A DNA stretch of 24,358 nt from Symploca sp. SIO1C2 (GCA_010672925.1 JAAHFP010000079.1:1-24358), one strand, 5' to 3'. Positions 3,074-22,917 are shown, numbered from the stretch's first letter. Numbers and translations are program-made. The notes: generated by a model from the sequence alone, not told the origin.

Positions 3074-3092
3074 GAATTTGGAATTGATGAAT

Positions 3093-3149
3093 GTGGAACT
3101 TCGCTGCTAATCTGTGTCAGCTTCTCTACTGGCAGGATGCCAGTTCCAC
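3093..3149 (+). repeat. GTGGAAC-hairpin element copy H1 (possible terminator/RNA-end element)
   Basis: Outer arms gtggaact (3093-3100) and agttccac (3142-3149). Inner perfect 7-bp stem actggca-gga-tgccagt (3128-3144). Lies 20-76 nt after the stop at 3071-3073. Confidence 0.7.
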
Positions 3150-3264
3150 GGAAGGACAGTTTATATTTATGCTTTCAAGATATTAGGAGCTGTACTTTGT
3201 CTACAGGCGCACAACTATTCCATTATTCATAATAATAGCAAAAAATCACAGCAAATACAACAAG

Positions 3265-3291
3265 AGAATTTAGAATTTAGAATTTAGAATT
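3265..3291. repeat. STRR heptamer array (AGAATTT)n
   Basis: agaattt x4 read directly. Reverse complement of the AATTCTA family at 12625-12666. Confidence 0.85.
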
Positions 3292-3313
3292 GGTAATAAA
3301 AACACGTAAACTC

Positions 3314-3378
3314 GTAGGGGCGGGTTTAGGGAGATGATAAGGGCATCAACAATAATTGGAGTACAAAACCCGCCCTAT
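3314..3378 (-). mobile_element. MITE-like ~65-bp hairpin element, copy A (GGGCGGGTTT-ended family)
   Basis: gtaggggcgggtttaggg...caaaacccgccctatc. The ends are imperfect inverted repeats (GGGCGGGTTT / AAACCCGCCC). The reverse complement matches the ends of copies B, C and D. Confidence 0.7.
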
Positions 3379-3510
3379 CGATAACCTTGCCGAAAGCACG
3401 ATTACTTACAGCACCAGTGTAAGCGCGATTGCTTGCAGCACCAGCGTAGCTGATCGCTTATCGGTTTTGAATATATCTTCGGGGTAGATTTTGCCTATGG
3501 GGAAGATACC

Positions 3511-3577
3511 GACAGGGCGGGTTTTGATTGCAAGATTAGGGTCAAATAGCCTAGATTATCCCTAAACCCGCCCCTAC
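3511..3577 (+). mobile_element. MITE-like ~65-bp hairpin element, copy B
   Basis: gacagggcgggttttg...ccctaaacccgcccctac. Inverted relative to copy A. Confidence 0.7.
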
Positions 3578-3751
3578 AATATTGACAATGTCTGATGTAT
3601 CCCCAACTTCTTCTACGGGTTGGTCGAATTAATTACAGTTTGAACTGAGAAATCGGGGATTTGTGAAAAGCGATCGCAAAGGTGGTAGCTATTACTACCT
3701 GAGGACAAATAACTGCTAGGATAAGCTGTTGTTGTTGAACTGCCTCCCCTT

Positions 3752-5764
3752 GTGCAAGATTTACCCTCACCTGACTCTTCCAGAGTCTCGAAGCAATTAC
3801 CGGATCAGCGGTGGCAGATACCACCGGCACAAACAGATCTAGCAGACCAACTCTCCCAGGCAACTGGACTTCCTTCCCTGCTAACCCAGGTACTGATTAA
3901 CCGGGGTATCGAGACAGCAGAGGAGGCAGAAGCTTATTTGCGTCCCGAATCCCTGGTAATGCCTCCACCGATGGATGAATTTACTGACTTGGCCATTAGT
4001 GTGGAGATGCTGACGGAAGCGATCGCTGAACAAACTAAAATTGCGATCTGTGGGGACTATGATGCGGATGGTATGACTAGCACCGCTTTGTTACTGAGAG
4101 CCTTACGTTGGTTTGGTGCGGATGTAGACTATGCTATTCCTAGCCGGATGCAGGATGGTTACGGTATCAATCGGCGGATTGTCGAAGAGTTCGCTGCTGA
4201 AGGTGTAGGGCTAATTTTAACCGTAGACAATGGTATTTCTGCCCACGAAGCGATCGCTGCAGCAGTGGAATTGGGTATCACTGTGATTATTACCGATCAC
4301 CATGACTTGCCGCCAGACTTGCCAGAAGCTGATGCGATTCTCAACCCGAAAATGCTGCCGGAATCCTCCCCTTACCGGAGTATTGCTGGGGTAGGAGTAG
4401 CCTATATTTTAGCCGTTTCCCTGGGTCAAGAACTAGATAAGCTTCAAGGATTGACTGCTCAGTTATTAGAACTATTTACTTTAGGAACTATCGCTGATTT
4501 AGCCTCCTTAACCGGGATTAATCGGCGTTGGTTAAAGCGAGGCTTAAGGCAATTACCCCAGTCTCAACTCACAGGAGTTCAAGCCTTAATCCAAATGGCA
4601 GGAGTCCAGGAAGACCAAAAAGCCCTGAAACCAGAGGACATTGGCTTTAAACTAGGACCTAGAATTAATGCGATTGGTAGGATTTCTGACCCCCAGATTG
4701 TCATTGAACTGCTGACAACAACAGACCAGGGGATAGCATTAGAACGAGCGATGCAATGTGAGCAAGTCAACCAACAACGTCAGCAACTCTGTGCTCAAAT
4801 TGAAGAAGACGCGATCGCTTTTATTGAACAGAGTCAGTTACCTTGGCAACAAGAGCGAGTTTTAGTAATAGTGCAACCGGATTGGCATCACGGTGTTATT
4901 GGCATAGTTGCTTCCCGACTAGTAGAACGTTACGGAGTACCGGTATTTATTGGTACTTATGAAGGAGATGAGCAAGACCATATCAGGGGTTCAGCACGAG
5001 GTATACCAGAATTTTCCGTCTTTGAAGCTCTGCTTTCCTGTAAGGATTTACTCGGAAAATTTGGTGGACACAAAGCAGCTGGAGGATTTTCTTTACCTAC
5101 AGAGAATTTAGCAGATTTTCAAAAAGGTCTTAGCAATTTTGCCCATGAATGTTTACAACCAGAACACCTCAAACCCCTGGTAATCATCGATACTGCCATC
5201 GACTTCCAGCAAGTTAGTCTGAAATTGTACCAACAAATAGACCTACTCCACCCTTGTGGTATCGGTAATCCTGCCCCTGTCTTCTGGACACCTAATGTCC
5301 GGGTAGTTGAGCAAAGAATCGTAGGCAATGGACATTTAAAATTGACTGTTAGTCAAAGTAACCAGGCTACTAGAATCAAAGCTATTGCTTGGCGCTGGGG
5401 TGAATACTATCCTTTACCGAAAATGGTAGATATTGCTTACAAACTGCGAGAAAATACTTTCAATGGCGGCACTGGTATTGAGCTAGAAATCATTGGTATC
5501 CGCTTACCCGAATCCCCACAGCCTTCTGTAACTTCCCAGAAAACCACAGAATTTTATTACAATCAACGCCGCTACACCTGTAGCCTAATAGAATCTTTAA
5601 ATGAATTAAGAATTAAGAATCCTCAAGGAAAAGTTCTCGCCATTCAGAAAGGACAACGAACTGGTCTTTTAGGTATGAAGCGGGAAGATGCCAGGAAAGT
5701 AGATGTAACGAAACCGCCTTATTACCAGTTAATTAAAGCAGCAGCCCAAGCTTTGCAGCTGTGA
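3752..5764 (+). CDS. recJ: Single-stranded-DNA-specific exonuclease RecJ
   Basis: DHH-family motifs AICGDYDADGMTS, TVDNGIS and IITDHHD, plus the DHHA1 motif GGHKAAGG. N-terminal LLTQVLINRGI is typical of RecJ. GTG start at 3752. Confidence 0.95.
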   Translation: MQDLPSPDSSRVSKQLPDQRWQIPPAQTDLADQLSQATGLPSLLTQVLINRGIETAEEAEAYLRPESLVMPPPMDEFTDLAISVEMLTEAIAEQTKIAICGDYDADGMTSTALLLRALRWFGADVDYAIPSRMQDGYGINRRIVEEFAAEGVGLILTVDNGISAHEAIAAAVELGITVIITDHHDLPPDLPEADAILNPKMLPESSPYRSIAGVGVAYILAVSLGQELDKLQGLTAQLLELFTLGTIADLASLTGINRRWLKRGLRQLPQSQLTGVQALIQMAGVQEDQKALKPEDIGFKLGPRINAIGRISDPQIVIELLTTTDQGIALERAMQCEQVNQQRQQLCAQIEEDAIAFIEQSQLPWQQERVLVIVQPDWHHGVIGIVASRLVERYGVPVFIGTYEGDEQDHIRGSARGIPEFSVFEALLSCKDLLGKFGGHKAAGGFSLPTENLADFQKGLSNFAHECLQPEHLKPLVIIDTAIDFQQVSLKLYQQIDLLHPCGIGNPAPVFWTPNVRVVEQRIVGNGHLKLTVSQSNQATRIKAIAWRWGEYYPLPKMVDIAYKLRENTFNGGTGIELEIIGIRLPESPQPSVTSQKTTEFYYNQRRYTCSLIESLNELRIKNPQGKVLAIQKGQRTGLLGMKREDARKVDVTKPPYYQLIKAAAQALQL

Positions 5765-5767
5765 AAT

Positions 5768-5836
5768 TAGGTGGTAGGTGTTAAGTGGTAGGTGGTAGGT
5801 GGTAGGTGGTAGGTGGTAGGTGGTAGGTGGTAGGTA
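5768..5836 (+). repeat. STRR heptamer array (GGTGGTA/GGTGTTA)n
   Basis: Starts 4 nt after the recJ stop. The same family occurs at 7873-7913, 17424-17449, 17837-17869 (inverted) and 21801-21922. Confidence 0.9.
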
Positions 5837-5946
5837 TAAGTAAGTTGGGTTTCATTACTACCGGCGTGACACGCCTAAAATAGTGAAATAGACGTAGGTT
5901 GGGTCGAGGCACTACTGTGGTACACCTAAAATGATGTAATATATGT

Positions 5947-10663: not shown

Positions 10664-12274
10664 TTAAGGCTCTTGCAGTATCCTTACCTGATTATCTAAG
10701 TCTAGTTGTACCTGATTATCCAAACCTAATTGTGGTGCGGCTTGAGCCACTTGTAGGGCTCTGATAAATTGAGCTAGGGAATATTCTAGATGGCTTCCCG
10801 CATCTACAGCTACCCAACCATCAGAGGTTAAATGTCGCCATTCAAAATGTAGGTGAGGACCGGTAGAACGTCCAGTGCTGCCGACACGCCCAATTACACT
10901 GCCTTGCTTTACTTGTTCACCAGGTCGAACAAAGATTTCAGAAAGGTGGGCATAGCGGCTTTCTTGAGTATTTTCTTCATGGCGCATAATTACCATTAGA
11001 CCATAGCCACCAGCAAAGTCAGCATATTTCACCTCACCGGAAGCAGCGGCAACTACAGGTGTCCCTTGAGGGGCTCCAATGTCAGTCCCAGAATGGAAGC
11101 GGGAGTCACCGGTAAAAGGATCAAGCCGCCAGCCAAAGACAGAACCAATAGCAGCGGGAATCGTTAGGGGAAACATAAACTTGGATTTGCCAATACTAGG
11201 ACGTCCTGCTGGGCGATTGGTAAGATTGTAGTAAGCTAGGCCAGATTGTGGTGCTTTTTGTCTGATAGCTATCCTGTTTGAGGGAGGCTTACTAGCAACA
11301 TTAGTATTAACTTTGGCTCGATTTAGAGGCAGACCACTGATACTGTTAGTATTAACCCTAACTCGATTCAAGGATGGACTACTGGTATTATTGGTCTTAA
11401 CTTTCACTGCTCCAGTTGCGACCGGTTGCACATTGTTGACCGGTTGAGCTCTAGCGACAGGTGGTATAGGAAGTTTTGCTCTGTTTACTATGGAACTTGG
11501 CGGTGATGGAGGAAGGGTTGGTTTGTTATTTGCAGTAGGTTGACTAGCTGCAGGAACACCACAGGAGCTACCGGAAAGTTGACCGCTTTGGGATACCGTT
11601 GAACAGCCAGTTGACCTTTCAGTAAGAATGACTGAAGTAGGCTTATTGTCGCGACTAGTTGAAGCAATATTGTTGTCAGTATTGTCAATATCGCTATTTT
11701 GAGGAGCAAGATGAATTTGAGCACTCCCTTGAGTGGGAGGATTAACCAGGGGTTGAGATGGCTGCGCTACCTCAGCACTTGGAGGTACTTGCAAGTTAGG
11801 GGCAGCTATAAGTGACTTTTTCGGTGCTGGTGCTGCTAAAGGTCCTGGTGCAGGAAGTGGGGCTGCTACCAGTTTTGGTGCAGGAGATGAGTCTGCTACT
11901 GGTTCTGGTGCAGGAGACGGGGCTGGTGCAGGAGATGAGGCTGCTACTGGTTTTGGTGCAGGAGATGAGTCTGCTACCGGTTCTGGGGTCGGAGATGGAA
12001 CTGCCGCCGGTGCAGGAGATGAGTCTGCTGCCGGGGCTGGAGAAGGAGACGGGGCTACTGCAGGAGGTGATGCTGCTGCCGTTGCTGCTACTGGGGCAGG
12101 AGTTCCTGCATCTACAAATGAATCAGTTTGAGCAACAACCATACTGCTGCTGAGGAAACCGAAACCACCAATCAAACTCAGTACCCGCATCAACAGAGGA
12201 AACTTGTAAAAAAGACTTGAGGGGGTGTAACTAGAAGAGGATTTTTCTACCATTTCCGACTCACTACTCATCAC
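10664..12274 (-). CDS. M23 (LytM-type) peptidase with Pro/Ala/Ser-rich N-terminal region
   Basis: HSGTDIGAPQGTPVVAAASGEV...GYGLMVIMRH...YAHLSEI...GSTGRSTGPHLHFEWRH are M23 metal-binding motifs. PAPS-rich repeats (SSPAPxPVA). Start ambiguous: GTG 12274, ATG 12271, or the Met of MRVLSLIGGFGFLSSSMVVAQ, which looks like the signal peptide. Confidence 0.93.
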   Translation of the reverse strand: MMSSESEMVEKSSSSYTPSSLFYKFPLLMRVLSLIGGFGFLSSSMVVAQTDSFVDAGTPAPVAATAAASPPAVAPSPSPAPAADSSPAPAAVPSPTPEPVADSSPAPKPVAASSPAPAPSPAPEPVADSSPAPKLVAAPLPAPGPLAAPAPKKSLIAAPNLQVPPSAEVAQPSQPLVNPPTQGSAQIHLAPQNSDIDNTDNNIASTSRDNKPTSVILTERSTGCSTVSQSGQLSGSSCGVPAASQPTANNKPTLPPSPPSSIVNRAKLPIPPVARAQPVNNVQPVATGAVKVKTNNTSSPSLNRVRVNTNSISGLPLNRAKVNTNVASKPPSNRIAIRQKAPQSGLAYYNLTNRPAGRPSIGKSKFMFPLTIPAAIGSVFGWRLDPFTGDSRFHSGTDIGAPQGTPVVAAASGEVKYADFAGGYGLMVIMRHEENTQESRYAHLSEIFVRPGEQVKQGSVIGRVGSTGRSTGPHLHFEWRHLTSDGWVAVDAGSHLEYSLAQFIRALQVAQAAPQLGLDNQVQLDLDNQVRILQEP

Positions 12275-12425
12275 TCACTATGCCTACTATCCTAGGCTCG
12301 AATCCCAAAGATTGTCCAAGAGGTGATAACAGGGGGAAAAAGGAGACCAGGTTTCGCAATTTCTATGTATAGCAATTCTACGACTTGTGAGGTACATCTT
12401 GATCCCCCTAAATCCCCCTTAAAAA

Positions 12426-12561
12426 GGGGGACTTTGAGAAAAGGGGGACTTTGAGAAAAGGGGGACTTTGAGAAAAGGGGGACTTTGAGAAAAGGGGGAC
12501 TTTGAGAAAAGGGGGACTTTGAGAAAAGGGGGACTTTGAGAAAAGGGGGACTTTGAGAAAA
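12426..12561. repeat. Perfect 17-bp tandem repeat x8 (GGGGGACTTTGAGAAAA)
   Basis: GGGGG starts at 12426, 12443, 12460, 12477, 12494, 12511, 12528 and 12545. Preceded by the hairpin tccccc-ttaaaaa-ggggga. ORF 12408..12626 is an artefact of it. Confidence 0.95.
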
Positions 12562-12624
12562 GAGTTTACCTTATGAGCCCATGAAAATTCATATGTCATG
12601 ACTTTTAATTTTTGGTATAACCTC

Positions 12625-12666
12625 AATTCTAAATTCTAAATTCTAAATTCTAAATTCTAAATTCTC
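12625..12666. repeat. STRR heptamer array (AATTCTA)n overlapping the birA stop codon
   Basis: Five perfect units plus one partial. The birA stop (cta at 12657-12659, TAG on the minus strand) and its last two codons lie inside the array. Confidence 0.9.
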
Positions 12667-13457
12667 CCGCTATATCCCAAACTAAATGTACCTGGTTTCA
12701 GACAAATTTCTGAGGAGTTGAAACTGACTTGTAGCTCACCTGTAGGGGTAACCCCTGTAATGATTCCCGGTTGGCCATCTACTATAACCTGACTTCCCAG
12801 GTGATGTAAAAGCTCTAGGTAAGAGGGCAGCAAACTTTCTATGCCAAATTCTAACCAATATTGGTATCCAGATAACAGTCCTTCGAGGACAATTGCTGCC
12901 AACATTTCTAGGGATGTTACTTGGGGATTTAACTGTTGTTGGCAAAAAGATTGTAAATTGATACCAGATTCAGGTACTGTATTGCTCCAGTTAATACCAA
13001 TACCGATAACAGCTTTGGTAACCAGATTTCTCTGAACACGGGTTTCCGTAAGAATGCCCCCTAATTTAAACTCTAACAGGAGCAAATCATTAGGCCATTT
13101 AAGCAAAACAGGGATACCGTAACTTCTCAAAGCTCTAGCAATTCCCCAAGCACTACACAAAGTTAGGTGAGCACTGTTGGATGCTTGAAGCTGGGGAGCT
13201 AAAGCTACAGATAAGTATAGTCCACCAAGACCCGATTGCCATTGCCGTCCCCGTTGTCCCCTTCCTGCGGTTTGTTGAGCGGCAATAACTGCTCTGGGTA
13301 TGGTTGCTCCCTGGTTGAGCAATTCCCACAGGGTTTGATTTGTAGAAGACAGAGTGTCAAATATATGTAGGGGTATAGTGGGAAATTTGCTCTGTAGAGA
13401 TAGTTGTTGCCTAACTTGTTGGAGAGCAGTTTTGAACTGGGTTTGATTAAAGCTCAC
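12657..13457 (-). CDS. birA: Biotin--[acetyl-CoA-carboxylase] ligase (no N-terminal HTH)
   Basis: QTAGRGQRGRQWQS (GRGRxGRxW biotin/ATP loop), LYLSV, KWPNDLLL. Length 266 aa. Confidence 0.92.
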   Translation of the reverse strand: MSFNQTQFKTALQQVRQQLSLQSKFPTIPLHIFDTLSSTNQTLWELLNQGATIPRAVIAAQQTAGRGQRGRQWQSGLGGLYLSVALAPQLQASNSAHLTLCSAWGIARALRSYGIPVLLKWPNDLLLLEFKLGGILTETRVQRNLVTKAVIGIGINWSNTVPESGINLQSFCQQQLNPQVTSLEMLAAIVLEGLLSGYQYWLEFGIESLLPSYLELLHHLGSQVIVDGQPGIITGVTPTGELQVSFNSSEICLKPGTFSLGYSGRI

Positions 13458-13534
13458 ATTTTTTCTGGTAATGAGTAATAAGCAGTAGTAGGACTTCAGT
13501 CCAAAAAGAAGCCAGAAACAATCGTCAGGTTATC

Positions 13535-13601
13535 GCTAGGGCGGGTTTTGTAGTTAAATTATCGCTATTACCGCTAATTATCTGGCTAAACCCGCCCCTA
13601 C
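13535..13601 (+). mobile_element. MITE-like ~65-bp hairpin element, copy C
   Basis: gctagggcgggttttg...ggctaaacccgcccctac. Same ends and orientation as copy B. Confidence 0.7.
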
Positions 13602-13654: not shown

Positions 13655-13906
13655 CTACATTCCTCTGTGGAACAGGCTTCTAGCCTGTGGTGTCTTCTCA
13701 AGCAGATTCAATATATTCACAAAGAGAGTTGGTTGAGGAATGGGAAGCCCTTCCTCTGCTAAACCATCCAAATGAAAAGCGATCGCTTCTTTGATCTGCT
13801 GTTGTATCTCTTCAATTGTCGCACCTGTTGCCACACATCCCGGCAAATCTGGAACATAGGCTGAATAATTACTCTCTAGCTTTTCAATCACAATCCCATA
13901 ACGCAT
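13655..13906 (-). CDS. hicB: HicB-family antitoxin (UPF0150-type) with repeat-derived C-terminal tail
   Basis: MRYGIVIEKLESNYSAYVPDLPGCVATGATIEEIQQQIKEAIAFHLDGLAEEGLPIPQP is a typical HicB core. AGGAGA lies upstream. The last 12 codons (TPQARSLFHRGM) are encoded by hairpin element H2. Confidence 0.75.
   Translation of the reverse strand: MRYGIVIEKLESNYSAYVPDLPGCVATGATIEEIQQQIKEAIAFHLDGLAEEGLPIPQPTLFVNILNLLEKTPQARSLFHRGM
13667..13688 (-). repeat. GTGGAAC-hairpin element copy H2
   Basis: gtggaacaggc-ttcta-gcctgt, 6-bp stem, inside the 3' end of hicB. Confidence 0.7.
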
Positions 13907-14317
13907 TACTATTCTTCTCCTACTTAGGATATTTTATTGGTTGCAATTTTCGTGCTTTTTGGCTATTATTTTAATAATGGAATAGGTGTGCGCATGTAAG
14001 GTACAAATTACTACTGCTGACTTCAAAAAACATTTTAGCAAATGTGAGTTGGGGTTACGAAGCATAACCCAACAGCGAGTTCTGGCTCTGGATATCAATT
14101 CTGGGAAATACACGGTTTGCGATCACTTTCAGCACTAGCTTCGCTCATCGCTAGACCGTTTTGATAATACCAATTACCGAAAGTTGCTAGATACTCAAAG
14201 CCTTGAAATCAAGACATACCGATGATTCATTTCAACTAAGTTTCCAGCTACTTTTTGTAAATGGTATAAGTTCGCAACACATCAAAAAAAAGCACTAAAT
14301 TCAATCATCAGTTTCCT

Positions 14318-14339
14318 GTGGAACAGGCATCTTGCCTGT
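14318..14339 (-). repeat. GTGGAAC-hairpin element copy H3
   Basis: gtggaacaggca-tct-tgcctgt, 7-bp stem, about 80-100 nt downstream of the caspase-STAND stop. Confidence 0.7.
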
Positions 14340-14392
14340 CTGACGTCTCCCCCTATCTGTTGCATCTGTCTCAACTACTATCTTTGAATGCA

Positions 14393-14418
14393 AATGGGTA
14401 TCTCAGCAATTACCCATT
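14393..14418 (-). terminator. Possible terminator hairpin abutting the caspase-STAND stop codon
   Basis: aatgggta (14393-14400) pairs with tacccatt (14411-14418): perfect 8-bp stem with a 10-nt loop. On the minus strand it is followed by TTGCATTC, so the U-tract is weak. Confidence 0.35.
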
Positions 14419-17400
14419 CATCGTCTGAAAACTTCCCACTGACCACAATCTATCCGTTGGTAGGGTTCTTTTTTTAGTTCCTCTTCAAAATCTGGGTCAA
14501 ATTTCGCTTCCTGCCAATAGCAGATAGATTTGACCTGCTTGGGAGTGAGGTTTTCGACTTTGCCCCAATTTGGGTCTTCACCGAAGTAGGCTCCGCTGAG
14601 GTCAGCTCTATTGATGTCAGCTCCTCTGAGGTCAGCTCCTCTGAGGTCAGCTCCTCTGAGGTCAGCATCAAAGAGGTTGGCATCAATAAGGCTAGCCTCC
14701 AAGAGGCCGACTCTACTGAGGTTGGCATCAAAGAGGATGGCTCTACTGAGGTTGGCTCTGCTGAGGTCGGTTCCACTGAGTTTGGCTCTCCTGAGGTTGG
14801 CTCTGCTGAGGTTGGCTCCACTGAGTTTGGCTCCACTGAGTTTGGCTCTCCTGAGGTCGGCTCCACTGAGGTTGGCATCAATGAGGTCGGCTCCACTGAG
14901 GTTGGCATCAATGAGGTCGGCTCCACTGAGGTCGGCTCCACTGAGGTTAGCTCCACTGAGGTTGGCTCTGCTGAGGTCGGCTCCACTGAGGTTGGCTCTG
15001 CTGAGGTCGGCTCCACTGAGGTTGGCTCTGCTGAGGTTGATCCTACTCAAGTTAGCTTGTTGAAGAGGAGCATTCCTTAAAGCAACTCCTAACTCTTTGA
15101 GCTTTCGCAGCGCTTCGTGCCTAGCCGCATTGTACTCTTCACCTTGAGTTTCCTGAACTGTTTCCCAGTGCTGCTTAATCGCTACTCTCCTATAAGACAA
15201 GTACCCAATCAGTGTTGTTCCAATTACAGGAATGATCAACCAACCAACAATTAATTTCAGTCGATTACGCTGCTTGTGCTCGATACTTTTTTCGATAAAC
15301 TCTGAGGCAAATTTCGATAAAGGAAATTCTTCACTCTCCTTTTTCTTAAACTCTCTAGCTTCCCTTAACCGCCTTCCTTGCAGCAAATAATCCTTAGCAA
15401 TTTTAGGATTTTCCTGCTGCTTATTCCTCCACTCAATAGCAGCAGCTTCAATCTTACGCTGCTCCCTGAGCTTATCCCGACTTTCCTCTAACCACTGCCT
15501 CAACAGACACCAGTTACGGATCAGTGCTTCATGAGCAACATCCACTACTACTTCCCCACTTGCCATCCCCTTTGCTGTTAGCTCACTAGTAACAATTAAC
15601 CGATTCTCCTTATCCGCTAATTCCGCAATTACCTCATCAATTAGAGCTTCAGGATATTTAGCTGTAATCAAATCTTGCTTTAATACCCGCCTACGAGTAT
15701 CCTCTGTCCCCTCTCCCAGCTGCGTCAAACCCAGAAATATATGCCTAGCTACCTCCTGCTTTAACTGAGAAAATTGTTGGAAAATCTCCGTGGCTCTTTT
15801 ATCTAACGTTCCCCCTACACCTCCTAACTGAGCATAACTAGCTAACTGTAAACCCTCATCAGTGCGCTGTTTCCAAAGTGCCTTGAGGGTATATTGCAAC
15901 AGTGGCAAACTTCCAGGAGAACCTGCGACATCTTGAAGCATCTGCTCCACTAATTCTGGCTCAATCTCCAAGTTAACTAGTTCAGCAGGTTTAGCGATCG
16001 CATCTTGCAACTGTTCCCTTTCCATCGGAGATATTGCGACTAAGTTCTCCTGGATCAGTTGAGCTAGTCCACTATAATTCTGCTCGATACATTTACTAAA
16101 GAAATCTGCTCGCATTGCCAGAATCAGACAAAGTTCCTCTTCCAACTGCCTTAATGCTCCCAGCAAAAAGTCAATAAACTGCGATCGCTCTCCATAATTC
16201 TGACAAAGGGTGAAAACTTCCTCAAATTGGTCGATTACCAGCACCACACGAGTAACTTGAGCAGATTGTACTAGACGGCGTAACCCATCTGCACCTTCTT
16301 TGAGTAATTCTTCTGCTTTCCCTAACTGTGTAGCGTGGTCAACTTGGGATAAATTTGGCTCCACAAAAACCTCTGCTAAACTCCTCAGAGGCTGACTTCC
16401 AGGAACCATAATCTCAATCTGCCACTGATTACTCCCAGCTAATTGCCTTCCTAACTTCAGTTGATGGAGTAATCCGGCCCTCAGGACTGAAGATTTACCA
16501 CTGCCAGAAGCTCCGATAATTGCCAAGAAGCTACTCTGACGCACTTTATCAATCAGCTGATCCGTTAGTTCCTTGCGTCCGAAAAAGTATTTGGGGTCTT
16601 CTTCATTACAGTCAAAATATTCTAATCCCTTGTAAGGACAAATGGCTTCAGTTGGTTCAGAAGTCGCCTGCTGTTGTTGAAATTTCCAGCTACGAGTTAA
16701 ATTAATCGGCTCACCAAAGTTAGTAAAAGTCGGACGTTGAGTTACCCCTTGCAGATGTTGGTTGAGATAATCCACCAAACTATAGTTAGTAACCCAGCGT
16801 TGAGGACATCTACTAGGGTCAAGTCCTTCTAGTAGCACCCTAGTCAAAACACTGTAGGCACTACCAATTTCTTCAAAAGACTCCTCAAATTCCCTAGAAG
16901 CAGCGATAAAACAACGGTCTCTTCCTTTACCTTGTTCTCCAGGGTCAGCTTCTTGCCCAAAATTGAGTAATTCTCCACTATGGCAGCAGTCAAGCCAGAC
17001 TATTTGCTGCTTAATCGGACTCTCTCTTAATAGTTCTCGCAACCATTTCAAGGATAAGCCATTAAATTCTACATCGGGATTAACATCACTAGTTGCCAAA
17101 AATCCTTCTGGAATACCCAAAGTTGTACGCAATCCATGGCCAGAAAAGTAGAATAAGGCAGTATCGGGGATACTGTTACCTTCGGGTAAAAATAGTTTAA
17201 CCAGTGCTTGCTTGAGTTGTGACAGCTTAACTTCCAGCTTCTTCCCTACAAAAGGCTGATGAGTTTCTCGATGAATTGCTTCCGGCAACCGCCAGACACG
17301 AAACTCTCCATCCTGTTCTAACCGTTGTGCAATCGCTTCTGCATCTTCAGCGGGAGCTTGTAGGTTACGTAAGTCTGAATATTGGTAAGTATTGATGCCA

Positions 17401-17423
17401 ACAACTAGCGCATCCCGGATCAT
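14418..17423 (-). CDS. Caspase-like (peptidase C14, orthocaspase) - nSTAND-type P-loop NTPase - single TM helix - pentapeptide-repeat protein
   Basis: Caspase His/Cys dyad motifs FYFSGHG (aa ~93-98) and VWLDCCHSG (aa ~142-150). CPYKGLEYFDCNEEDPKYFFGRKEL then P-loop IIGASGSGKSSVLRAGL and Walker B VVLVIDQFEEVFT. HEALIRNWCLLRQWLEE helix. TM LIVGWLIIPVIGTTLIGYLSY (nt 15192-15260). About 32 pentapeptide units A(N/D)LSx (aa ~786-946). C-terminal NLTPKQVKSICYWQEAKFD tail. Confidence 0.93.
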   Translation of the reverse strand: MIRDALVVGINTYQYSDLRNLQAPAEDAEAIAQRLEQDGEFRVWRLPEAIHRETHQPFVGKKLEVKLSQLKQALVKLFLPEGNSIPDTALFYFSGHGLRTTLGIPEGFLATSDVNPDVEFNGLSLKWLRELLRESPIKQQIVWLDCCHSGELLNFGQEADPGEQGKGRDRCFIAASREFEESFEEIGSAYSVLTRVLLEGLDPSRCPQRWVTNYSLVDYLNQHLQGVTQRPTFTNFGEPINLTRSWKFQQQQATSEPTEAICPYKGLEYFDCNEEDPKYFFGRKELTDQLIDKVRQSSFLAIIGASGSGKSSVLRAGLLHQLKLGRQLAGSNQWQIEIMVPGSQPLRSLAEVFVEPNLSQVDHATQLGKAEELLKEGADGLRRLVQSAQVTRVVLVIDQFEEVFTLCQNYGERSQFIDFLLGALRQLEEELCLILAMRADFFSKCIEQNYSGLAQLIQENLVAISPMEREQLQDAIAKPAELVNLEIEPELVEQMLQDVAGSPGSLPLLQYTLKALWKQRTDEGLQLASYAQLGGVGGTLDKRATEIFQQFSQLKQEVARHIFLGLTQLGEGTEDTRRRVLKQDLITAKYPEALIDEVIAELADKENRLIVTSELTAKGMASGEVVVDVAHEALIRNWCLLRQWLEESRDKLREQRKIEAAAIEWRNKQQENPKIAKDYLLQGRRLREAREFKKKESEEFPLSKFASEFIEKSIEHKQRNRLKLIVGWLIIPVIGTTLIGYLSYRRVAIKQHWETVQETQGEEYNAARHEALRKLKELGVALRNAPLQQANLSRINLSRANLSGADLSRANLSGADLSRANLSGANLSGADLSGADLIDANLSGADLIDANLSGADLRRAKLSGAKLSGANLSRANLRRAKLSGTDLSRANLSRAILFDANLSRVGLLEASLIDANLFDADLRGADLRGADLRGADINRADLSGAYFGEDPNWGKVENLTPKQVKSICYWQEAKFDPDFEEELKKEPYQRIDCGQWEVFRR
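14586..15068 (-). repeat. 15-bp periodic coding repeat (pentapeptide-repeat region)
   Basis: Units such as gaggtcggctccact and gaggttggctctgct are reiterated with few differences. They generate the spurious ORFs 14474..15016 and 14611..15063. Confidence 0.9.
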
Positions 17424-17449
17424 TTAGGTGTTAGGTGTTAGGTGGTAGG
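17424..17449 (+). repeat. STRR array (TTAGGTG/GGTGGTA) abutting the caspase-STAND start codon
   Basis: On the minus strand it reads CTCCCCTACCACCTAACACCTAACACCTAA followed directly by ATG (17423-17421). Confidence 0.9.
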
Positions 17450-17616
17450 GGAGGTTATATTTTCAGTGCATTATTTTATAGTATAGCTGAGGGGATTAAG
17501 ATATTCTTTGCTATTTTCCTTTCTCAAAATAAAATGATTGTACCCGTGATGTGGTGCGTTACGCTACGCTAACACACCCTACAATCTATCACTACGATAG
17601 TTACTAACTATTGTTT

Positions 17617-17825
17617 GAGCGGGTTTTGTATTAAGATTGTCGCCAAATGCGATAAGGGAGACCCTAAACTATTAGTGTCAACTTAAGGTGGATTCCAAAA
17701 ATTTAGTCCATTTCAATGGACTTAAGCTATTAGCCTTGGATTTGAATCCAAGGTGGGTTAGGGAATCCAGCTAGCAGCTATGTCTAGGTTTAAGTTGACA
17801 CCAATGACCCTAAACCCGCCCCGAC
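17617..17825 (+). mobile_element. MITE-like GGGCGGGTTT-ended element, copy D, interrupted by a second element
   Basis: gagcgggttttg...gataagggagaccctaaac [insert] gaccctaaacccgccccgac. Without the insert it is ~64 bp, like copies A-C. Confidence 0.7.
17671..17805. mobile_element. Nested 135-bp MITE with 16-bp terminal inverted repeats
   Basis: TIRs attagtgtcaacttaa (17671-17686) and ttaagttgacaccaat (17790-17805) match 15/16. Flanked by the direct repeat GACCCTAAAC (17660-17669 and 17806-17815). Internal perfect hairpins agtccat-ttca-atggact and ccttggatt-tg-aatccaagg. Confidence 0.75.
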
Positions 17826-17836
17826 AGCAATTAAAA

Positions 17837-17869
17837 CCTACCACCTACCACCTAACACCTACGACCTAA
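17837..17869 (-). repeat. STRR array (CCTACCA/CCTAACA)n abutting the Trypco1-like start codon
   Basis: CCTACCACCTACCACCTAACACCTACGACCTAA then A and ATG 17871. Inverted relative to 17424-17449. Confidence 0.9.
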
Positions 17870-17870
17870 A

Positions 17871-18260
17871 ATGATACAACTAACTCCTCTAGAACTTGAA
17901 GACGGAACAATCATTTATATAGAAGCCAAAGAAGATGTGGAAATTCCTTCTACCGAAGCTCCCCCATCTGAAGAAGAAGAAGAAGAACTAACTCGTGAGG
18001 ACTTAGATAAAGGTGGAAAAGGCTTGAGTAAAGCGCAGATGCTGCAAAATTTTAAACTAGTGGAAGGCACAATTCGAGCTTATACCCATTATACACTCAA
18101 CGCTTTCCGTCAAGTAGCCAACGCCAATATCAACAAAGTTACTCTAGAATTTGGCATGAAAGTAGGGGGTAAAGCCGGTATCCCTTACATTACCGAAGGC
18201 ACTGCCGAAAGCAACCTGAAAATTACTGTGGAATGTTCTTTTCCTAACGAAAAAAAATAG
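17871..18260 (+). CDS. Small Trypco1-like (CU044_2847-type) protein, tentative
   Basis: N-terminal LELEDGTIIYIEA, acidic low-complexity linker, C-terminal VTLEFGMKVGGKAGIPYITEGTAESNLKITVE. This fits my recollection of the trypsin-co-occurring domain 1 pattern (ELxDGxxVxVEV ... VxVEFGxKxxxEAGxxIAxxxxEAxxKVxLxW). Confidence 0.6.
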   Translation: MIQLTPLELEDGTIIYIEAKEDVEIPSTEAPPSEEEEEELTREDLDKGGKGLSKAQMLQNFKLVEGTIRAYTHYTLNAFRQVANANINKVTLEFGMKVGGKAGIPYITEGTAESNLKITVECSFPNEKK

Positions 18261-18402: not shown

Positions 18403-18434
18403 ATACTAATGTACGATAATGGCAGCATCCGAAG

Positions 18435-19328
18435 TTGTCACTTTCCTCCTTAGGCAAAAGCGATCGCATGGTACCAAAAGAACTAAAGTTCCTGTTGAAG
18501 TTGTTAGGCTTTCCCAATTACAGGGCTCCCTTGACTAAAATTCAGCCTACTCCCAAAATGAAAGCTATGGAACGGAATAGTCTTTGTCGTCGGCTGTGCA
18601 ATCAAGGTTTTGTGGCTAGTGCGGTGGTGGTTACTAAGTTAAAGATTGCTCCTCCTGGTAAGTCTCTGCTCAAGTTAGATCCTACTGGTTCCCTGGTTAA
18701 GGAGGAAGAACTTCAAGTACTCCAAGCTTGCGCTAAGAGAACAATTTCTCCTCAAAAGACTGGTATTCCTAGTGACAAGCAACAAATAGTTATCCATGAT
18801 TTGAGCCAAAGGGGATTGATTAAAATAGTCGATCACAGAATTACCGACATTTGGTTGACAGACCAGGGGCAGCAATATTTATTGGAAAACTACGAATGTA
18901 ATAGTACCTCTGAACATATCCACCTGAAGATGCTCACGGATTACCTGCGGTTGCTGCGTAGATTCCAAGGGGTTGCCAGGGAGCAGGTACAGTCTGCAAC
19001 CATTGAGTCTCAGGAACCTGTAGGGACTGAGAAGTTGGCTGTATCTGAGAGCAAACCCACAGATGCAGCTATATTGCAGTTAATTCAAGATTTAGACAAT
19101 AAGTTAGGCACTAACAATTATTTGCCCATTTTTCATCTGCGGGAACAATTACAACCAAGGCTGTCTAGGGAAGAATTAGATCAAACTCTTTATCGCCTCC
19201 AACAACAAGAACAAATTGAGCTGAGTGCTTTGGTACATACTCAAAACTATACCCCAGAGCAAATTAACGCAGGTATTAGTCAGCGGGTTGGTAGTAAGCT
19301 ATTTTTTATCCAGGTTACGGTGGAGTGA
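18435..19328 (+). CDS. Hypothetical protein with three winged-helix-like modules
   Basis: The track start is TTG 18435. ATG 18468 (MVPKELKFLLKLLG) is more likely. Two tandem ~70-aa units share the pattern (K/E)EL..L......(R/K)...L...G(F/L)(V/I)........(I/L)...G...LL. A third unit is ILQLIQDLDNKLGTNNYLPIFHLREQLQPRLSREELDQTLYRLQQQEQIELS. No family recognised. Confidence 0.6.
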   Translation: MSLSSLGKSDRMVPKELKFLLKLLGFPNYRAPLTKIQPTPKMKAMERNSLCRRLCNQGFVASAVVVTKLKIAPPGKSLLKLDPTGSLVKEEELQVLQACAKRTISPQKTGIPSDKQQIVIHDLSQRGLIKIVDHRITDIWLTDQGQQYLLENYECNSTSEHIHLKMLTDYLRLLRRFQGVAREQVQSATIESQEPVGTEKLAVSESKPTDAAILQLIQDLDNKLGTNNYLPIFHLREQLQPRLSREELDQTLYRLQQQEQIELSALVHTQNYTPEQINAGISQRVGSKLFFIQVTVE

Positions 19329-19428
19329 AAACTAGTGCAGCATGGCCAAAATAAACTACCAGGGAAAAAAAGTTAACCAGCTTACTGTTTCCTTGCACTT
19401 TAACCCAGAAATCCAAGCATAAACTCTT

Positions 19429-19462
19429 GACTTATTACTTATTACTTGTTACTTATTACTTC
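19429..19462. repeat. STRR heptamer array (CTTATTA/TTATTAC)n
   Basis: Read directly. Same family as 1-22. Confidence 0.85.
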
Positions 19463-19640
19463 AAAACCCGAGTCAATGGACTTATACAGCAAGCCCTAAG
19501 TAGGGTTGGCTGAATAAGTGTGGAAGCTTTGCCAGACAAAAGGTTCAGTCCAATTGACAGCCAAACTAGTCCAAAGTTTTTTATTTTTTGGCTCAATTTT
19601 CTTGCACCTTAATGGGAAATTCCTGGGTAACTTTCTTCTT

Positions 19641-19685
19641 CTCCCTTGTCTCCCTTGTCTCCCTTGTCTTCCTTGTCCCCCTTGT
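19641..19685. repeat. 9-mer tandem array (CTCCCTTGT)n
   Basis: Five units, three of them perfect, about 50 nt upstream of ATG 19734. It creates the spurious ORF 19518..19712. Confidence 0.9.
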
Positions 19686-19733
19686 CTGACTTATTCAGCA
19701 AGCCCTAAGTAGCGCCACTGAGGTATCCGCAAT

Positions 19734-21815
19734 ATGACATCTATCGATGAGCTTATTTTAAGAAGTACTAATCCCTTTGATAACTATCGGTCTGTCAATT
19801 TTTGGGATCAACAGCAAGCTACCGAACCTACAGTTAACTCTATTCACAAAGATGCGATCGCGAAAATAGAAACTACTCTAGATCAAGTTGCCCTAGACCA
19901 TCGTACCCGAACTGTGAGGCTAGAAGGAGACCCTGGTTCTGGTAAAACTTTTCTGTTGGGTAGGCTCAAGCGTCAACTAAACCCCAAAGCCTTTTTTGCT
20001 TATATTCCTCCCTTTCCCCAGAGTGACGAAATCTGGCGCCATATCTTGCGCTACACTGTTAATAGTCTGGTAGAAGTACCCCATCGGCAGCAAGACTCTC
20101 AATTGTTGCGATGGCTCAAAAGCTTATCTGTTTTTAAACGACGCGGTTTTGGCAAGGGATTACGGCAAGGTACTGCTTGGGATTGGTTAAGGGCTGACAA
20201 ACAAAGATTTATTACCAATCTCAAGGAAACTTATCAAAAAGCGCCTCTTTATAATGCTAACAGTTTTTTCAGCTTGCTCCATGACCTGACTAACCCGAAA
20301 CTGTATCCTTTAGCTTGTGAATGGTTAAAAGGAGATGATTTAAGTGAAGAAGCTCTAGAAAAATTAGGACTAAAGCATTCCATTGAAAGTGAAGAAGCTG
20401 CCTATGAAATTTTAGCGAATTTCGGCAGAATTTCCATGGCAACTCAACCGATTGTCCTGTGTTTTGACCAACTAGAAAGCATTGCTTGCTTGCCGGATGG
20501 TTCCCTCAATTTACCGGCATTGTTTAATGCCAACACCAGAATTCATGACGAGAATCATAATTTTTTGATTATTATCAGTATTATTATTAATACCTGGAAA
20601 CAGAACGAGCATCGCCTTGACCAGTCTCATAAAGACCGAATTGATACCCATCTTACTCTGCGACCGATTAATATCGAACAAGCCCAATCCATTTGGGCAA
20701 CTCGTCTTTTCCCCCTCCACTCTCAAGCCCAATACCAACCAAATTCTATAATTTATCCCCTCAAGCGTCAATATCTAGAAGCTGAATTACCTAGCGGTAA
20801 AACCAATCCCAGAAATGCTCTGCTCATTGGCAGAGATATCTTTCAACAGTTCAAAGAATGGCTAGCTCAAGAAACAAAAGAAAAGTTTCAGCCTACCTAC
20901 AGACCTCAACAGCCAAAAAGTCAACCATCAGACCTGCTAGCTAACTTTAAATTAAATTGGGTTGAAGAGCTAAATAAGATTCAAGAAAAATTTACTGATA
21001 TTCGCCAGTTATCTTCACCGGAACTAATCAGAGTCCTGCAAGATGCCCTGATTGCTCTACAAGGGTCAGAAATTACTACTCCTCTGTTAACAAAAACCAA
21101 GTATGCTAGCTATTCCCTAAGCTATCAGTTACCGAATCACCCTGGCAAGCGAGGTGTGATCTGGACAGAAGACTCCAATATGAATTCCTTTTTCAATGTT
21201 ATGAGAGCCTGTCAGAAAGAGATTCACAATCACTCTGATACAGTCTTGCAACTGATTCGTTCTTTAGGAGTAGGTAAACCATCTAATGCAGGACATAAAC
21301 TCTATCAAACAATTTTCACCGGTTCACCCCATTGTCACCTTATCCCCAGCCTCAATTCCTTTCAATACCTAGTAACTTACCATAATTTAGTTAAGGATGC
21401 TCGGGAGGGAGACTTATTAATTGGCAGTGAAACTTTAGGCTTGAAAGGTTTACAAGCCTTAGTTAGGGAATCCCAAGTTTTAGAAGATTGTCAGTTATTA
21501 CAAGATTTAGGTATTTTTGTCCGGCAGCAACCCCAGGAAGATACTAAGGAGTTGAATCGTCCACAACAGAGAAAAACTAGTAAAGCGTCTCAAAATGGGT
21601 TGCTCTCGGTTAAAGACTATTTGTTCAATTTAGTGAAAACCCAAGGACTGATGGGACGTCAAATACTTGTCGAAAATATTTGTAGTCAGTTTACCCAGGT
21701 TCCCGAATCTCAAGTTGAGGAACTGCTTGAGCAGTTGTGTCAAGAAAAGCAAATCTCTATTCTCAATCCTAAGGAGCAACGAGAAGCACAGCTGGTTTTT
21801 TTAGGTGTTAAGTAG
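19734..21815 (+). CDS. P-loop ATPase of the AAA+/STAND (ORC-Cdc6-like) type with helical C-terminal half and C-terminal winged-helix-like domain
   Basis: Walker A LEGDPGSGKTFLLGRL (aa ~63-76). Walker B PIVLCFDQLESI (aa ~239-250). NFLIIISIIINTW (sensor-I-like). LTLRPINIEQAQSIWATRL (lid-like). C-terminal ILVENICSQFTQVPESQVEELLEQLCQEKQISIL. The last codons and the stop lie in the STRR. Confidence 0.8.
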   Translation: MTSIDELILRSTNPFDNYRSVNFWDQQQATEPTVNSIHKDAIAKIETTLDQVALDHRTRTVRLEGDPGSGKTFLLGRLKRQLNPKAFFAYIPPFPQSDEIWRHILRYTVNSLVEVPHRQQDSQLLRWLKSLSVFKRRGFGKGLRQGTAWDWLRADKQRFITNLKETYQKAPLYNANSFFSLLHDLTNPKLYPLACEWLKGDDLSEEALEKLGLKHSIESEEAAYEILANFGRISMATQPIVLCFDQLESIACLPDGSLNLPALFNANTRIHDENHNFLIIISIIINTWKQNEHRLDQSHKDRIDTHLTLRPINIEQAQSIWATRLFPLHSQAQYQPNSIIYPLKRQYLEAELPSGKTNPRNALLIGRDIFQQFKEWLAQETKEKFQPTYRPQQPKSQPSDLLANFKLNWVEELNKIQEKFTDIRQLSSPELIRVLQDALIALQGSEITTPLLTKTKYASYSLSYQLPNHPGKRGVIWTEDSNMNSFFNVMRACQKEIHNHSDTVLQLIRSLGVGKPSNAGHKLYQTIFTGSPHCHLIPSLNSFQYLVTYHNLVKDAREGDLLIGSETLGLKGLQALVRESQVLEDCQLLQDLGIFVRQQPQEDTKELNRPQQRKTSKASQNGLLSVKDYLFNLVKTQGLMGRQILVENICSQFTQVPESQVEELLEQLCQEKQISILNPKEQREAQLVFLGVK

Positions 21816-21922
21816 GTGGTAGGTTTTAGGTGGTAGGTGGTAGGTGGTAGGTGGTAGGTTTTAGGTGGTAGGTGGTAGGTTTTAGGTGATAGGTGTTAGG
21901 TGTTAGGTGGTAGGTGGTAGGT
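21801..21922 (+). repeat. STRR array (GGTGGTA/GGTTTTA/GGTGTTA)n
   Basis: About 17 units. It contains the ATPase stop TAG 21813-21815 and ends at HIP1 GCGATCGC 21923-21930. Confidence 0.95.
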
Positions 21923-21930
21923 GCGATCGC

Positions 21931-22064
21931 AATTAGCAATTAGCCATTAGCCATTAGCCATTAGCAATTAGCCATTAACCATTAGCCATTAACCATTAGC
22001 CATTAACCATTAGCCATTAGCCATTAACCATTAACCATTAGCCATTAGCCATTAGCAATTAGCC
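21931..22064 (+). repeat. STRR array (CCATTAG/CAATTAG/CCATTAA)n
   Basis: About 19 units, running to within 10 nt of the HD gene stop (22075-22077). Confidence 0.95.
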
Positions 22065-22074
22065 AGAGTGTTTC

Positions 22075-22917
22075 CTAAGAGCAGACCAGATTTTCCTGTT
22101 CTACCTGAAACACATTGGCATGGAGATTGGCAAGGATTTGCTTACCCTCAAAGGTCAGTTCCAAGTAAGGTAATGCAGGTTGAATGTAGGGGAAAACATG
22201 TCTGTAAAAGTTTGGGTAATTCTTGCGCAATTCACCAGGAGTACGACAACCGGAATTCTTATTCACACCATTTTCCTCAAATTCATAGAACAAGGCAGGA
22301 AGTTTGTGTAAGTAATGAGGGTCAGATAGTTGACCAATTAAATCTGCTGCTCTTGCTAAGCTGGGGTAGTTAAAAGTGTCTGAATGCTTCTGATCAGCTG
22401 GTACGGGAAAACGGGTTAGCTCAATATTGTCCTCAATCATTTTAGTATCAAGGAGTACGCGATCGCTAAATTGCTCTTTAACGAACAGTTTCCCTCTGTC
22501 TACGTGAAATTGATTTAAGGATGCATCGGTAGAACCTGGTGGGAGATAAACCATCGTGTCTTCCATTCCCGTGGCATATAATCTCTCGGTAACCTGATCC
22601 TGTTGACATACCCCCTTAAGAAAACCAACGTCATGACACAACAAAGAGATCAGGAAATGTAACCAATCTTCAGGAGAAACATTACCCTCTAAGAGGTACT
22701 TACCCCGTAAGATTTCCTGTCCTGTTAAAGCGACCAGGATAGTATGCTCAACGTTATGATACAGAGCATCAGTATGGAAAATACTTTCTAGGGTTAGGTT
22801 TGCAATCGAACCTAGGGTTTCTACATAATCTAGTTTGAGGTTGCTGTAAACTTTACGGTAGCTAAACTTGAGGTGTTCAATACAGGTACTAATCATTACG
22901 TCTTGGAGATTAAACAT
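22075..22917 (-). CDS. HD-domain metal-dependent phosphohydrolase
   Basis: YHNVEHTILVAL ... LLCHDVGFLKG (H...HD signature), later ADLIGQLSDPHY. AAGGAG lies 6 nt upstream of the ATG. The antisense ORF 22068..22373 is spurious. Confidence 0.75.
   Translation of the reverse strand: MFNLQDVMISTCIEHLKFSYRKVYSNLKLDYVETLGSIANLTLESIFHTDALYHNVEHTILVALTGQEILRGKYLLEGNVSPEDWLHFLISLLCHDVGFLKGVCQQDQVTERLYATGMEDTMVYLPPGSTDASLNQFHVDRGKLFVKEQFSDRVLLDTKMIEDNIELTRFPVPADQKHSDTFNYPSLARAADLIGQLSDPHYLHKLPALFYEFEENGVNKNSGCRTPGELRKNYPNFYRHVFPYIQPALPYLELTFEGKQILANLHANVFQVEQENLVCS

Follow-up and report, generated by a model that had tools for sequence, protein, structure and literature searches.

The two adjacent plus-strand genes studied here, which encode proteins of 286 amino acids (aa) and 693 aa and are named D and G, respectively, throughout, lie in a 24,358-nt stretch of DNA from Symploca sp. 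SIO1C2 (GCA_010672925.1 JAAHFP010000079.1:1-24358), and this whole stretch is referred to as the window. Sequence comparison places the pair in the published rcaD-rcaG family. D is predicted to be a DNA-binding protein built of three winged-helix units and G to be an AAA+ ATPase of the Orc/Cdc6 clade. On balance we regard it as more likely than not that the two act as an ATP-gated DNA-recognition complex, which here would control transcription or DNA accessibility.

Membership in the rcaD-rcaG family

RcaD of Calothrix/Tolypothrix PCC 7601 is a 285-aa protein (CAC39267), and it is summarised in PMC2799420 (citing Noubir 2002) as binding the cpc2 promoter and, in chromatic acclimation, affecting several operons; the phenotype published for the rcaD mutant is transcriptional. 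The gene rcaG, located downstream of rcaD, is presented in the same summary as a putative ATPase gene whose product was proposed to aid RcaD binding. Phosphorylation-sensitive attachment to phycobiliprotein promoters and red-light-dependent co-transcription count as further marks of the family. The Lyngbya majuscula proteins 7968 and 7969 were reported to be 43% and 49% identical to RcaD and RcaG, respectively, and recombinant 7968 to shift jamaicamide upstream DNA (PMC2799420). Relatives in the clade of D are named "transcription factor RcaD" in NCBI and UniRef, including a Microcoleus homologue that is 50% identical to D of the window, and a query with a Nostocales D returned dozens of proteins named RcaD together with a 285-aa Tolypothrix protein (P0245, EKF02261.1) with an early UniParc identifier. 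From the organism, the length and this identifier we infer that P0245 is CAC39267 itself. In its locus (L081) a gene for a 684-aa AAA_16 ATPase (RcaG) follows 57 nt downstream. Full-length alignments give 42% identity between D of the window and P0245 (286 vs 285 aa, E 3e-70) and 47% between G and the downstream ATPase (693 vs 684 aa), and these values mirror those published for the Lyngbya pair. The module had been called unrecognised when it was read from the sequence alone; given the full-length identity to the Tolypothrix pair it is therefore not unrecognised, and it is new as a member of a family that is already described but poorly understood.

The pair shares with rcaD-rcaG of PCC 7601 the gene order, the strand, the full-length homology and the protein sizes, and the conserved C-terminal region of D corresponds to the part proposed to bind DNA. 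It differs in that G of the window falls into a deep clade (A) other than that of PCC 7601 RcaG (B), in that a nuclease-FtsK gene and a ParA gene come after the pair in PCC 7601 but not in the window, and in the spacer between the two genes (405 nt vs 57 nt). A link to chromatic adaptation cannot be inferred for the window pair. For annotation, the name RcaD/RcaG-family pair can be given to two "hypothetical/ATP-binding" genes of a marine cyanobacterium that resembles Symploca/Caldora.

Gene models and operon structure

Both open reading frames (ORFs) proposed in the sequence-only reading were found on the plus strand, one of 297 aa from a TTG (18435..19328) and one of 693 aa (19734..21815), and all the motifs listed there are present in the translations, namely GDPGSGKT, VLCFDQ about 170 aa later and LTLRPINIEQAQSIW (aa 307-321) in G, and ILQLIQDLD...LYRLQQQEQIELS in D. 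Relatives at E <= 0.001 numbered 1226 for G and 812 for D in the databases, and a profile of G retrieved 1481 relatives at E <= 1e-3 from a library of 50%-identity cluster representatives; because of these many relatives D and G are taken as genuine genes and not as chance ORFs. All best matches with an organism name were cyanobacterial, the closest being metagenome-assembled genomes (MAGs) of Symploca and Caldora (82-91% identity) and a metagenome contig (97%). The TTG at 18435 was dropped as the start codon of D, as 33 aligned homologues point to the ATG at 18468 (M-x-x-x-ELKFLLKLLG) as the conserved start, which gives 286 aa; the database form of D (P0121) has the same length.

A genome scan gave 236 related loci, of which the best 80 were examined; all but one of these were labelled as cyanobacterial or uncultured, the exception being a cyanobacterial-type contig binned as "Tatlockia". 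These 80 loci hold 73 adjacencies in which D immediately precedes G on the same strand, with a gap from -38 to 309 nt (median 55 nt), some genes thus overlapping. The two genes had been proposed as one module, and this module is genuine: homologues co-occur, and searches of D and G against housekeeping-family profiles returned zero matches. By gene order and strand the pair is an intact operon, widely conserved in cyanobacteria. Tandem paralogue arrays of the form D-G-G...D-G-FtsK were seen in many Oscillatoriales, with multiple paralogues per genome.

The gaps of 207 nt (from the stop codon of Trypco1 to the ATG at 18468) and 405 nt (from the stop codon of D to the start codon of G), noted earlier as filled with repeats, were both confirmed, and short tandem repeats are present in both. 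The 405-nt gap is the largest seen, because the spacer holds heptamer and 9-mer repeats and a 209-bp insertion that resembles a miniature inverted-repeat transposable element (MITE) and is absent in the Caldora/Symploca relatives (Table 1). No terminator-like site was found in the spacer (19329..19733), and a scan of the window with Rfam returned zero RNA families. The last 25 nt 5' of the G ATG are conserved and include a Shine-Dalgarno sequence (GAGG, 19720-19723). Upstream of D, only the last 58 nt (18410-18467) are conserved among the window and three Symploca/Caldora relatives, the sequence farther upstream being unalignable; this block includes a -10-like GATAAT (18415-18420) and has HIP1 GCGATCGC directly before the ATG, which suggests a separate promoter for D that does not depend on the Trypco1 gene.

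Table 1. Coordinates of the features of the D-G pair (window positions in nt, or aa of the protein where indicated)
Feature	Position	Strand	Evidence or remark
Conserved leader/promoter-proximal block upstream of D	18410..18467	+	near-invariant in window and three Symploca/Caldora relatives
D gene, RcaD-family protein, 286 aa	18468..19328	+	start-codon alignment, conservation, AlphaFold2, wHTH matches, RcaD homology
D winged-helix unit 1 (predicted)	aa 1-60		AlphaFold2
D winged-helix unit 2 (predicted)	aa 62-131		AlphaFold2
D long helix (predicted)	aa 153-179		AlphaFold2
D variable disordered linker (predicted)	aa 171-194		AlphaFold2
D C-terminal winged helix (predicted), most conserved part	aa 196-286		AlphaFold2
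D-G spacer, 405 nt	19329..19733	+	heptamer array, 9-mer array, MITE-like insertion
Heptamer array in D-G spacer	19430-19461		
MITE-like insertion, 209 bp	within 19479-19712		25-nt direct repeats 19479-19503 / 19688-19712; 27-nt inverted arms
9-mer array in D-G spacer	19640-19687		
G gene, RcaG-family Orc/Cdc6-like AAA+ ATPase, 693 aa	19734..21815	+	AAA_22 and AAA_16 matches, AlphaFold2, Foldseek, RcaG homology
G Walker A GDPGSGKT, aa 65-72	19926..19949	+	G-[DE]-x-G-S-G-K-[ST] essentially invariant in 103 members
G non-canonical Walker B IVLCFDQLE, aa 240-248	20451..20477	+	VLCFDQ = aa 241-246
G middle alpha/beta domain (predicted), aa ~428-568	21015..21437	+	AlphaFold2 secondary structure
G C-terminal winged-helix-like domain, aa 618-693	21585..21812	+	AlphaFold2 H-H-H-E-E, pLDDT 80-90
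Two heptamer arrays (GTAGGTG x16, ATTAGCC x19)	21812..22065	.	begin at G stop codon

Predicted structure of D

The AlphaFold2 model of D (predicted local distance difference test, pLDDT, 79) shows H-E-H-E, H-H-H-E and H-H-H-E-E patterns in its three units, Foldseek matched it to winged helix-turn-helix (wHTH) proteins of the Rpc34/TFIIIC, MarR, PadR and MCM-WH types, and profile search gave weak matches to SlyA/MarR for unit 2 and to Z-alpha wHTH for unit 3. Together these agree with the three winged-helix units that had been proposed for D. Weak homology was detected between units 1 and 2 (hhalign probability 76%). Zero sequence matches of D to DUF4007, SspB, DptG or BrxA models were obtained.

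Predicted structure of G and its Walker motifs

In the AlphaFold2 model of G (pLDDT 79, predicted template-modelling score 0.73) an N-terminal peptide is followed by the AAA+ core, the lid, an alpha/beta domain, a disordered linker (aa 598-621) and the winged helix, the latter with an H-H-H-E-E pattern at aa 618-690. The first 25 Foldseek matches in the PDB were all ORC4, Cdc6, ORC1 or archaeal Orc1/Cdc6 chains (probability 1.0, E 4e-5 to 1e-3), which themselves have a C-terminal winged helix, and zero STAND proteins were among the top 50. The model thus bears out the proposal of an Orc/Cdc6-like ATPase with its own C-terminal winged helix. The "~300 aa of helical repeats" described earlier were not recovered, as the model gives a lid/helical region and then the mixed alpha/beta domain. 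Archaeal Orc1/Cdc6 and eukaryotic ORC/Cdc6 are the best structural matches in AAA+ core, lid and C-terminal winged helix; G differs from these initiators in lacking a sequence-level match to them, in a helical insertion of ~140 aa between Walker A and Walker B, in the extra alpha/beta domain (~180 aa), in a Walker B with D-Q/N instead of D-E, and in lacking a replication context.

The motifs of G were compared in 103 family members. Walker A is intact, and the canonical Walker B (hhhhDE) was not found: IVLCFD-[Q/N] is present in 103/103, the position after the Walker B Asp (246) being Q in 82, N in 21 and E or D in none, with the catalytic Glu missing; an acidic residue stands at +2 after position 246 in 100/103 proteins. 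R302 and R324 are near-invariant, in a motif pattern that may correspond to box VII and sensor 2. Because Walker B has D-Q/N without the catalytic Glu and Walker A is intact, G is read as a putative ATP-binding switch with impaired hydrolysis. This natural "E-to-Q" Walker B in all G proteins predicts stable ATP binding and slow or no hydrolysis.

The middle domain has the order helix-strand-strand-strand-helix-strand (a-b-b-b-a-b) in the AlphaFold2 model and, by analogy with the architecture described in PMC10853773, is a candidate for an inactive restriction endonuclease (REase)-like insert. This idea is drawn from topology, because a profile of the domain gave zero matches against the PDB and hhalign detected no similarity between it and the Cas4-like domain of the nuclease-FtsK partner protein described below.

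Further searches returned little. The sole match of the full G profile against PDB sequences was the P-loop of Helraiser, the NCBIfam scan of D and G gave nothing useful, and PADLOC gave zero matches for D and none significant for G. A STAND or KAP NTPase was also considered for G and rejected: the profile matches were sub-threshold and confined to the P-loop (NACHT, 15 bits where 26.7 are required), and by structure G lies closest to ORC/Cdc6 proteins.

Residues 1-35 of G (19734-19838) are among the most conserved of the family (N13, P14, F15, N22, F23 and W24 invariant). The model shows this stretch as disordered (pLDDT ~39), and it may serve a partner as docking peptide.

The nuclease-FtsK gene of related loci

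The gene after G could be judged in 69 informative loci among the best 80, and in 46 of them it encodes a homologue of ~850 aa that combines an RNase D-like 3'-5' exonuclease, a Cas4-like PD-(D/E)xK domain, FtsK-alpha and an FtsK motor. In the Tolypothrix locus this is an 853-aa protein (10994-13555; DNA_pol_A_exo1, PDDEXK_1, FtsK_alpha and FtsK_SpoIIIE) followed by a ParA gene (13740-14624); a ParA/MinD-type ATPase gene is often next after the nuclease-FtsK gene, and ParA lies near the cluster in 24/80 loci. The PD-(D/E)xK domain keeps D..ExK..QxxxY and four conserved Cys, as in Cas4; for the motor domain, matches to the defence proteins SspH (3.4e-64) and mad8 were obtained. On a Pseudanabaena megaplasmid the nuclease-FtsK gene and the preceding G overlap start to stop. 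The other 23 of the 69 loci have a stand-alone D-G pair with no FtsK-like gene after G, and these include all close relatives with enough flanking sequence; stand-alone pairs occur in Caldora/Symploca, Leptolyngbya JSC-1 and Elainella. Within the window no FtsK-like sequence was found anywhere, nor was any HerA/FtsK or active REase/nuclease effector gene that a capture system would contain.

Rakesh, Aravind & Krishnan 2024 (PMC10853773) described such a combination of parts: an inactive REase placed between the core and the C-terminal wHTH of an Orc/Cdc6 ATPase, together with an active REase, HerA/FtsK (in some cases with FtsK-alpha and a fused 3'-5' exonuclease) and optionally a protein with 2-4 x wHTH, these neighbourhoods being predicted there to be counter-invader "capture" systems. 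Neither cyanobacteria nor RcaD is mentioned in the main text of that paper, and one of its supplement files holds no cyanobacterial entries. By analogy the cyanobacterial D-G-nuclease-FtsK cluster fits this parts list: G is a predicted Orc/Cdc6-type AAA+ protein with a domain between the ATPase core and the C-terminal wHTH, D is a separate multi-wHTH protein of three units, and in most related cyanobacterial loci one fusion protein joins FtsK-alpha and FtsK with a 3'-5' exonuclease and an active PD-(D/E)xK domain. The differences are the lack of a HerA/FtsK or nuclease gene in the window and the stable chromosomal location of the cyanobacterial cluster, as opposed to a mobile neighbourhood.

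A likeness is also seen to BREX (BrxA and BrxC) and Ssp (SspB and SspC) systems (PMC12839542, PMC10853773), in which a tripartite HTH/wHTH protein accompanies an ORC/Cdc6-clade AAA+ protein with a C-terminal wHTH and alpha+beta modules, and many G homologues carry a precomputed match to PF10923 (BrxC_BrxD). G of the window differs in scoring 14 bits against the PF10923 cut-off of 22.2 and in being about half the size of BrxC; no PADLOC matches to BrxA, BrxC, SspB or SspC were obtained, and no PglZ, methyltransferase or PAPS-reductase genes are present.

Several single proteins and loci touch on this cluster. P0472 of Carboxydochorda/Limnochorda (1348 aa), a non-cyanobacterial protein of the Limnochordia, has a G-like AAA+ domain, PDDEXK, FtsK-alpha and FtsK fused in one chain, and there is also a relative in Planctomycetota (P0470). 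The contig labelled "Tatlockia sp." (L020, JACCVJ010000171.1, a MAG of the Legionella group) carries a typical cyanobacterial D-G-FtsK cluster closest to that of Chlorogloea and is probably mis-binned. On plasmid p057_H of Nostoc sp. C057, which is conjugative, an 801-aa "exonuclease domain-containing protein" (L088, 5527-7932) has a distant G-like AAA+ segment (23.5% identity), and its gene adjoins a DUF262/DUF1524 (GmrSD-like) gene split by an ISL3 transposase.

Paralogy and replacement of G

Neighbour-joining trees were used for both proteins. The G tree has two deep clades, A with G of the window and some Nostocales and B with Tolypothrix RcaG; in the D tree the Nostocales D fall into one clade and D of the window groups with the "D2" copies of Oscillatoriales. 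The two trees are incongruent. In same-genus pairs of Nostocales (L006 vs L073, L011 vs L036 and L012 vs L081) D is 82-88% identical and G only ~47%; in DNA alignments identity is 89-93% for the flanks, with FtsK among them, and 77% for D and the start of G, and what remains of G could not be aligned. A recombination breakpoint within G was ruled out, the divergence between these genomes being spread over all domains. Because the flanks and D are similar and the divergence of G extends over all of its domains, the sequences indicate that at one chromosomal slot the whole of G was exchanged or was differentially retained.

Proposed mechanism and alternative explanations

We infer that D and G interact physically and that G behaves as an ATP switch, and the targets and the output of the complex are put forward on the same footing. 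D would find DNA sites, and ATP-bound G, hydrolysing slowly, would serve as a switch and not as a motor; G would bind D and/or DNA via its own winged helix and would stabilise or remodel the nucleoprotein complex. The output here would most likely be modulation of transcription or DNA accessibility, because the nuclease-FtsK partner gene is not adjacent in this genome, and this role has been reported for RcaD at phycobiliprotein promoters and, at the jamaicamide promoter, for Lyngbya 7968. Several points weigh against this proposal. The transcription-factor role comes from two DNA pull-down/electrophoretic mobility shift assay studies with unrelated probes, which a general DNA-scanning protein would fit too; the nuclease-FtsK gene in 46/69 loci and the Limnochordia fusion point to an ancestral role in DNA processing that was not purely regulatory; and with several paralogous lineages, and with G of the window (clade A) apart from Tolypothrix RcaG (clade B), strict orthology is not established.

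The explanation that takes up the second point is that the pair makes up the half that recognises DNA in an Orc/Cdc6-HerA/FtsK capture system directed against invaders, in which D, as a multi-wHTH scanner, and G, with its inactive REase insert, would localise to foreign or transferring DNA and recruit an exonuclease, a Cas4-like nuclease and an FtsK that reels in and degrades the DNA; the effector of this genome would then have its gene at another site, or the pair would be a decoupled relic. The frequent nuclease-FtsK gene and its overlap with G on the Pseudanabaena megaplasmid, the motor matches to SspH and mad8, the agreement of the domain list with the published class, the Limnochordia fusion of a G-like AAA+ domain to PDDEXK and FtsK, the swapping of two deep G lineages between conserved D and FtsK genes in same-genus genomes and the tandem arrays in Oscillatoriales all argue for it, and to this extent the earlier suggestion of a DNA-sensing conflict system gained some support, which comes from the gene after G in most other cyanobacteria. 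We nevertheless consider it unlikely for the pair in the window, as no FtsK-like gene lies within reach of the pair in the window or in its close relatives, PADLOC gave zero D matches and no significant G match, the inactive-REase assignment of the middle domain lacks sequence support, the published rcaD mutant phenotype, as summarised, is transcriptional, and the cluster lies on the chromosome, has passed on mostly by vertical descent and keeps its place, which sets it apart from typical mobile defence islands; it is absent from phages and nearly absent from plasmids. A function in replication initiation, with the pair as an Orc1/Cdc6-plus-loader-like module of the chromosome, a plasmid or an integrated element, appears very improbable. 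The analogy to such an initiator and loader, which had been drawn from the sequence alone, stands at the level of the fold, G being similar to ORC/Cdc6 initiators and D a multi-winged-helix partner, and a ParA gene is near the cluster in 24/80 loci; against it count the lack of an associated helicase, primase or origin-like repeats, a Walker B without the catalytic Glu, multiple tandem paralogues per genome and a neighbour that is a nuclease-translocase and not a replicative helicase. Hallmarks of phages or integrative elements are also lacking: the phage collection gave zero matches to the pair and the plasmids one full-length match only, and PHROGs gave zero matches for G and only a weak one for D (E 0.0025), so the suggestion that the genes are a remnant of an integrated element is not supported.

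That the pair could instead be an accessory or sensor module of the adjacent Trypco1/caspase-nSTAND1-pentapeptide conflict system has next to no likelihood. D does lie on the same strand 207 nt downstream of Trypco1, and this arrangement is repeated in the 97%-identical metagenome contig; Trypco1, caspase-STAND, HD, BPL and M23 genes were, however, found near D-G in 0/80 related loci, the 82%-identical relative has quite different neighbours (the pair lies there between cytochrome-c biogenesis genes and thiS), and the conserved leader of D starts only 58 nt before its ATG. The window context is common only to that near-identical contig, and by this comparison the Trypco1/caspase-STAND neighbourhood, within which the pair had been noted, is incidental and lineage-specific. 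The D-G pair is not to be counted within that system.

Going beyond the window, rcaD-rcaG, for two decades annotated as a chromatic-adaptation "transcription factor" operon, may be the part that recognises DNA in an ancient cyanobacterial "capture" machine of Orc/Cdc6, nuclease and FtsK, which was kept on the chromosome and holds foreign, plasmid or surplus DNA in check, with D as a 3xwHTH scanner and G as a hydrolysis-impaired switch present in two old lineages swapping at one slot. The window would then hold a decoupled D-G, and the transcriptional effects would be a by-product or a later co-option. We offer this as a speculative possibility that we tend to doubt. The comparison joins two literatures that were apparently unconnected so far, those of the RcaD/RcaG light-acclimation regulators and of the Orc/Cdc6-HerA/FtsK capture systems, and the link between them is testable in standard cyanobacterial models. 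If it is true, cyanobacteria such as Fremyella and Nostoc offer a conserved, genetically tractable example of an ATP switch and a wHTH scanner directing a nuclease-translocase, and the transcription-factor label on hundreds of RcaD entries needs revisiting.

Neighbouring genes and repeats in the window

The Trypco1 gene upstream of D (17871..18260) encodes 129 aa, and the gene for the caspase-nSTAND1-pentapeptide protein (14418-17423, 1001 aa) is divergent from it. The corresponding protein in L086, where G is 97% identical, has 1133 aa (2511-5912), and the difference in length may be due to a differing number of pentapeptide repeats; in L086 a HicB-like antitoxin gene is called as well, located between those for BPL and the caspase protein. 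Between the caspase-STAND and Trypco1 genes (17423-17870), inverted heptamer arrays (TTAGGTG / ACCTACC) with 27-nt arms that are 93% complementary bracket a segment of ~390 bp rich in nested inverted repeats, which may be another small inserted element.

Downstream of G, the heptamer arrays that begin at its stop codon fill the space up to a convergent gene for an HD metalloprotein of the Npun_R2479 family (22075-22917). At the left end of the window a separate STAND protein of 813 aa with NB-ARC and TPR (632-3073) is encoded, followed by recJ (3752-5764); the two STAND genes of the window are unrelated and lie ~11 kb apart.

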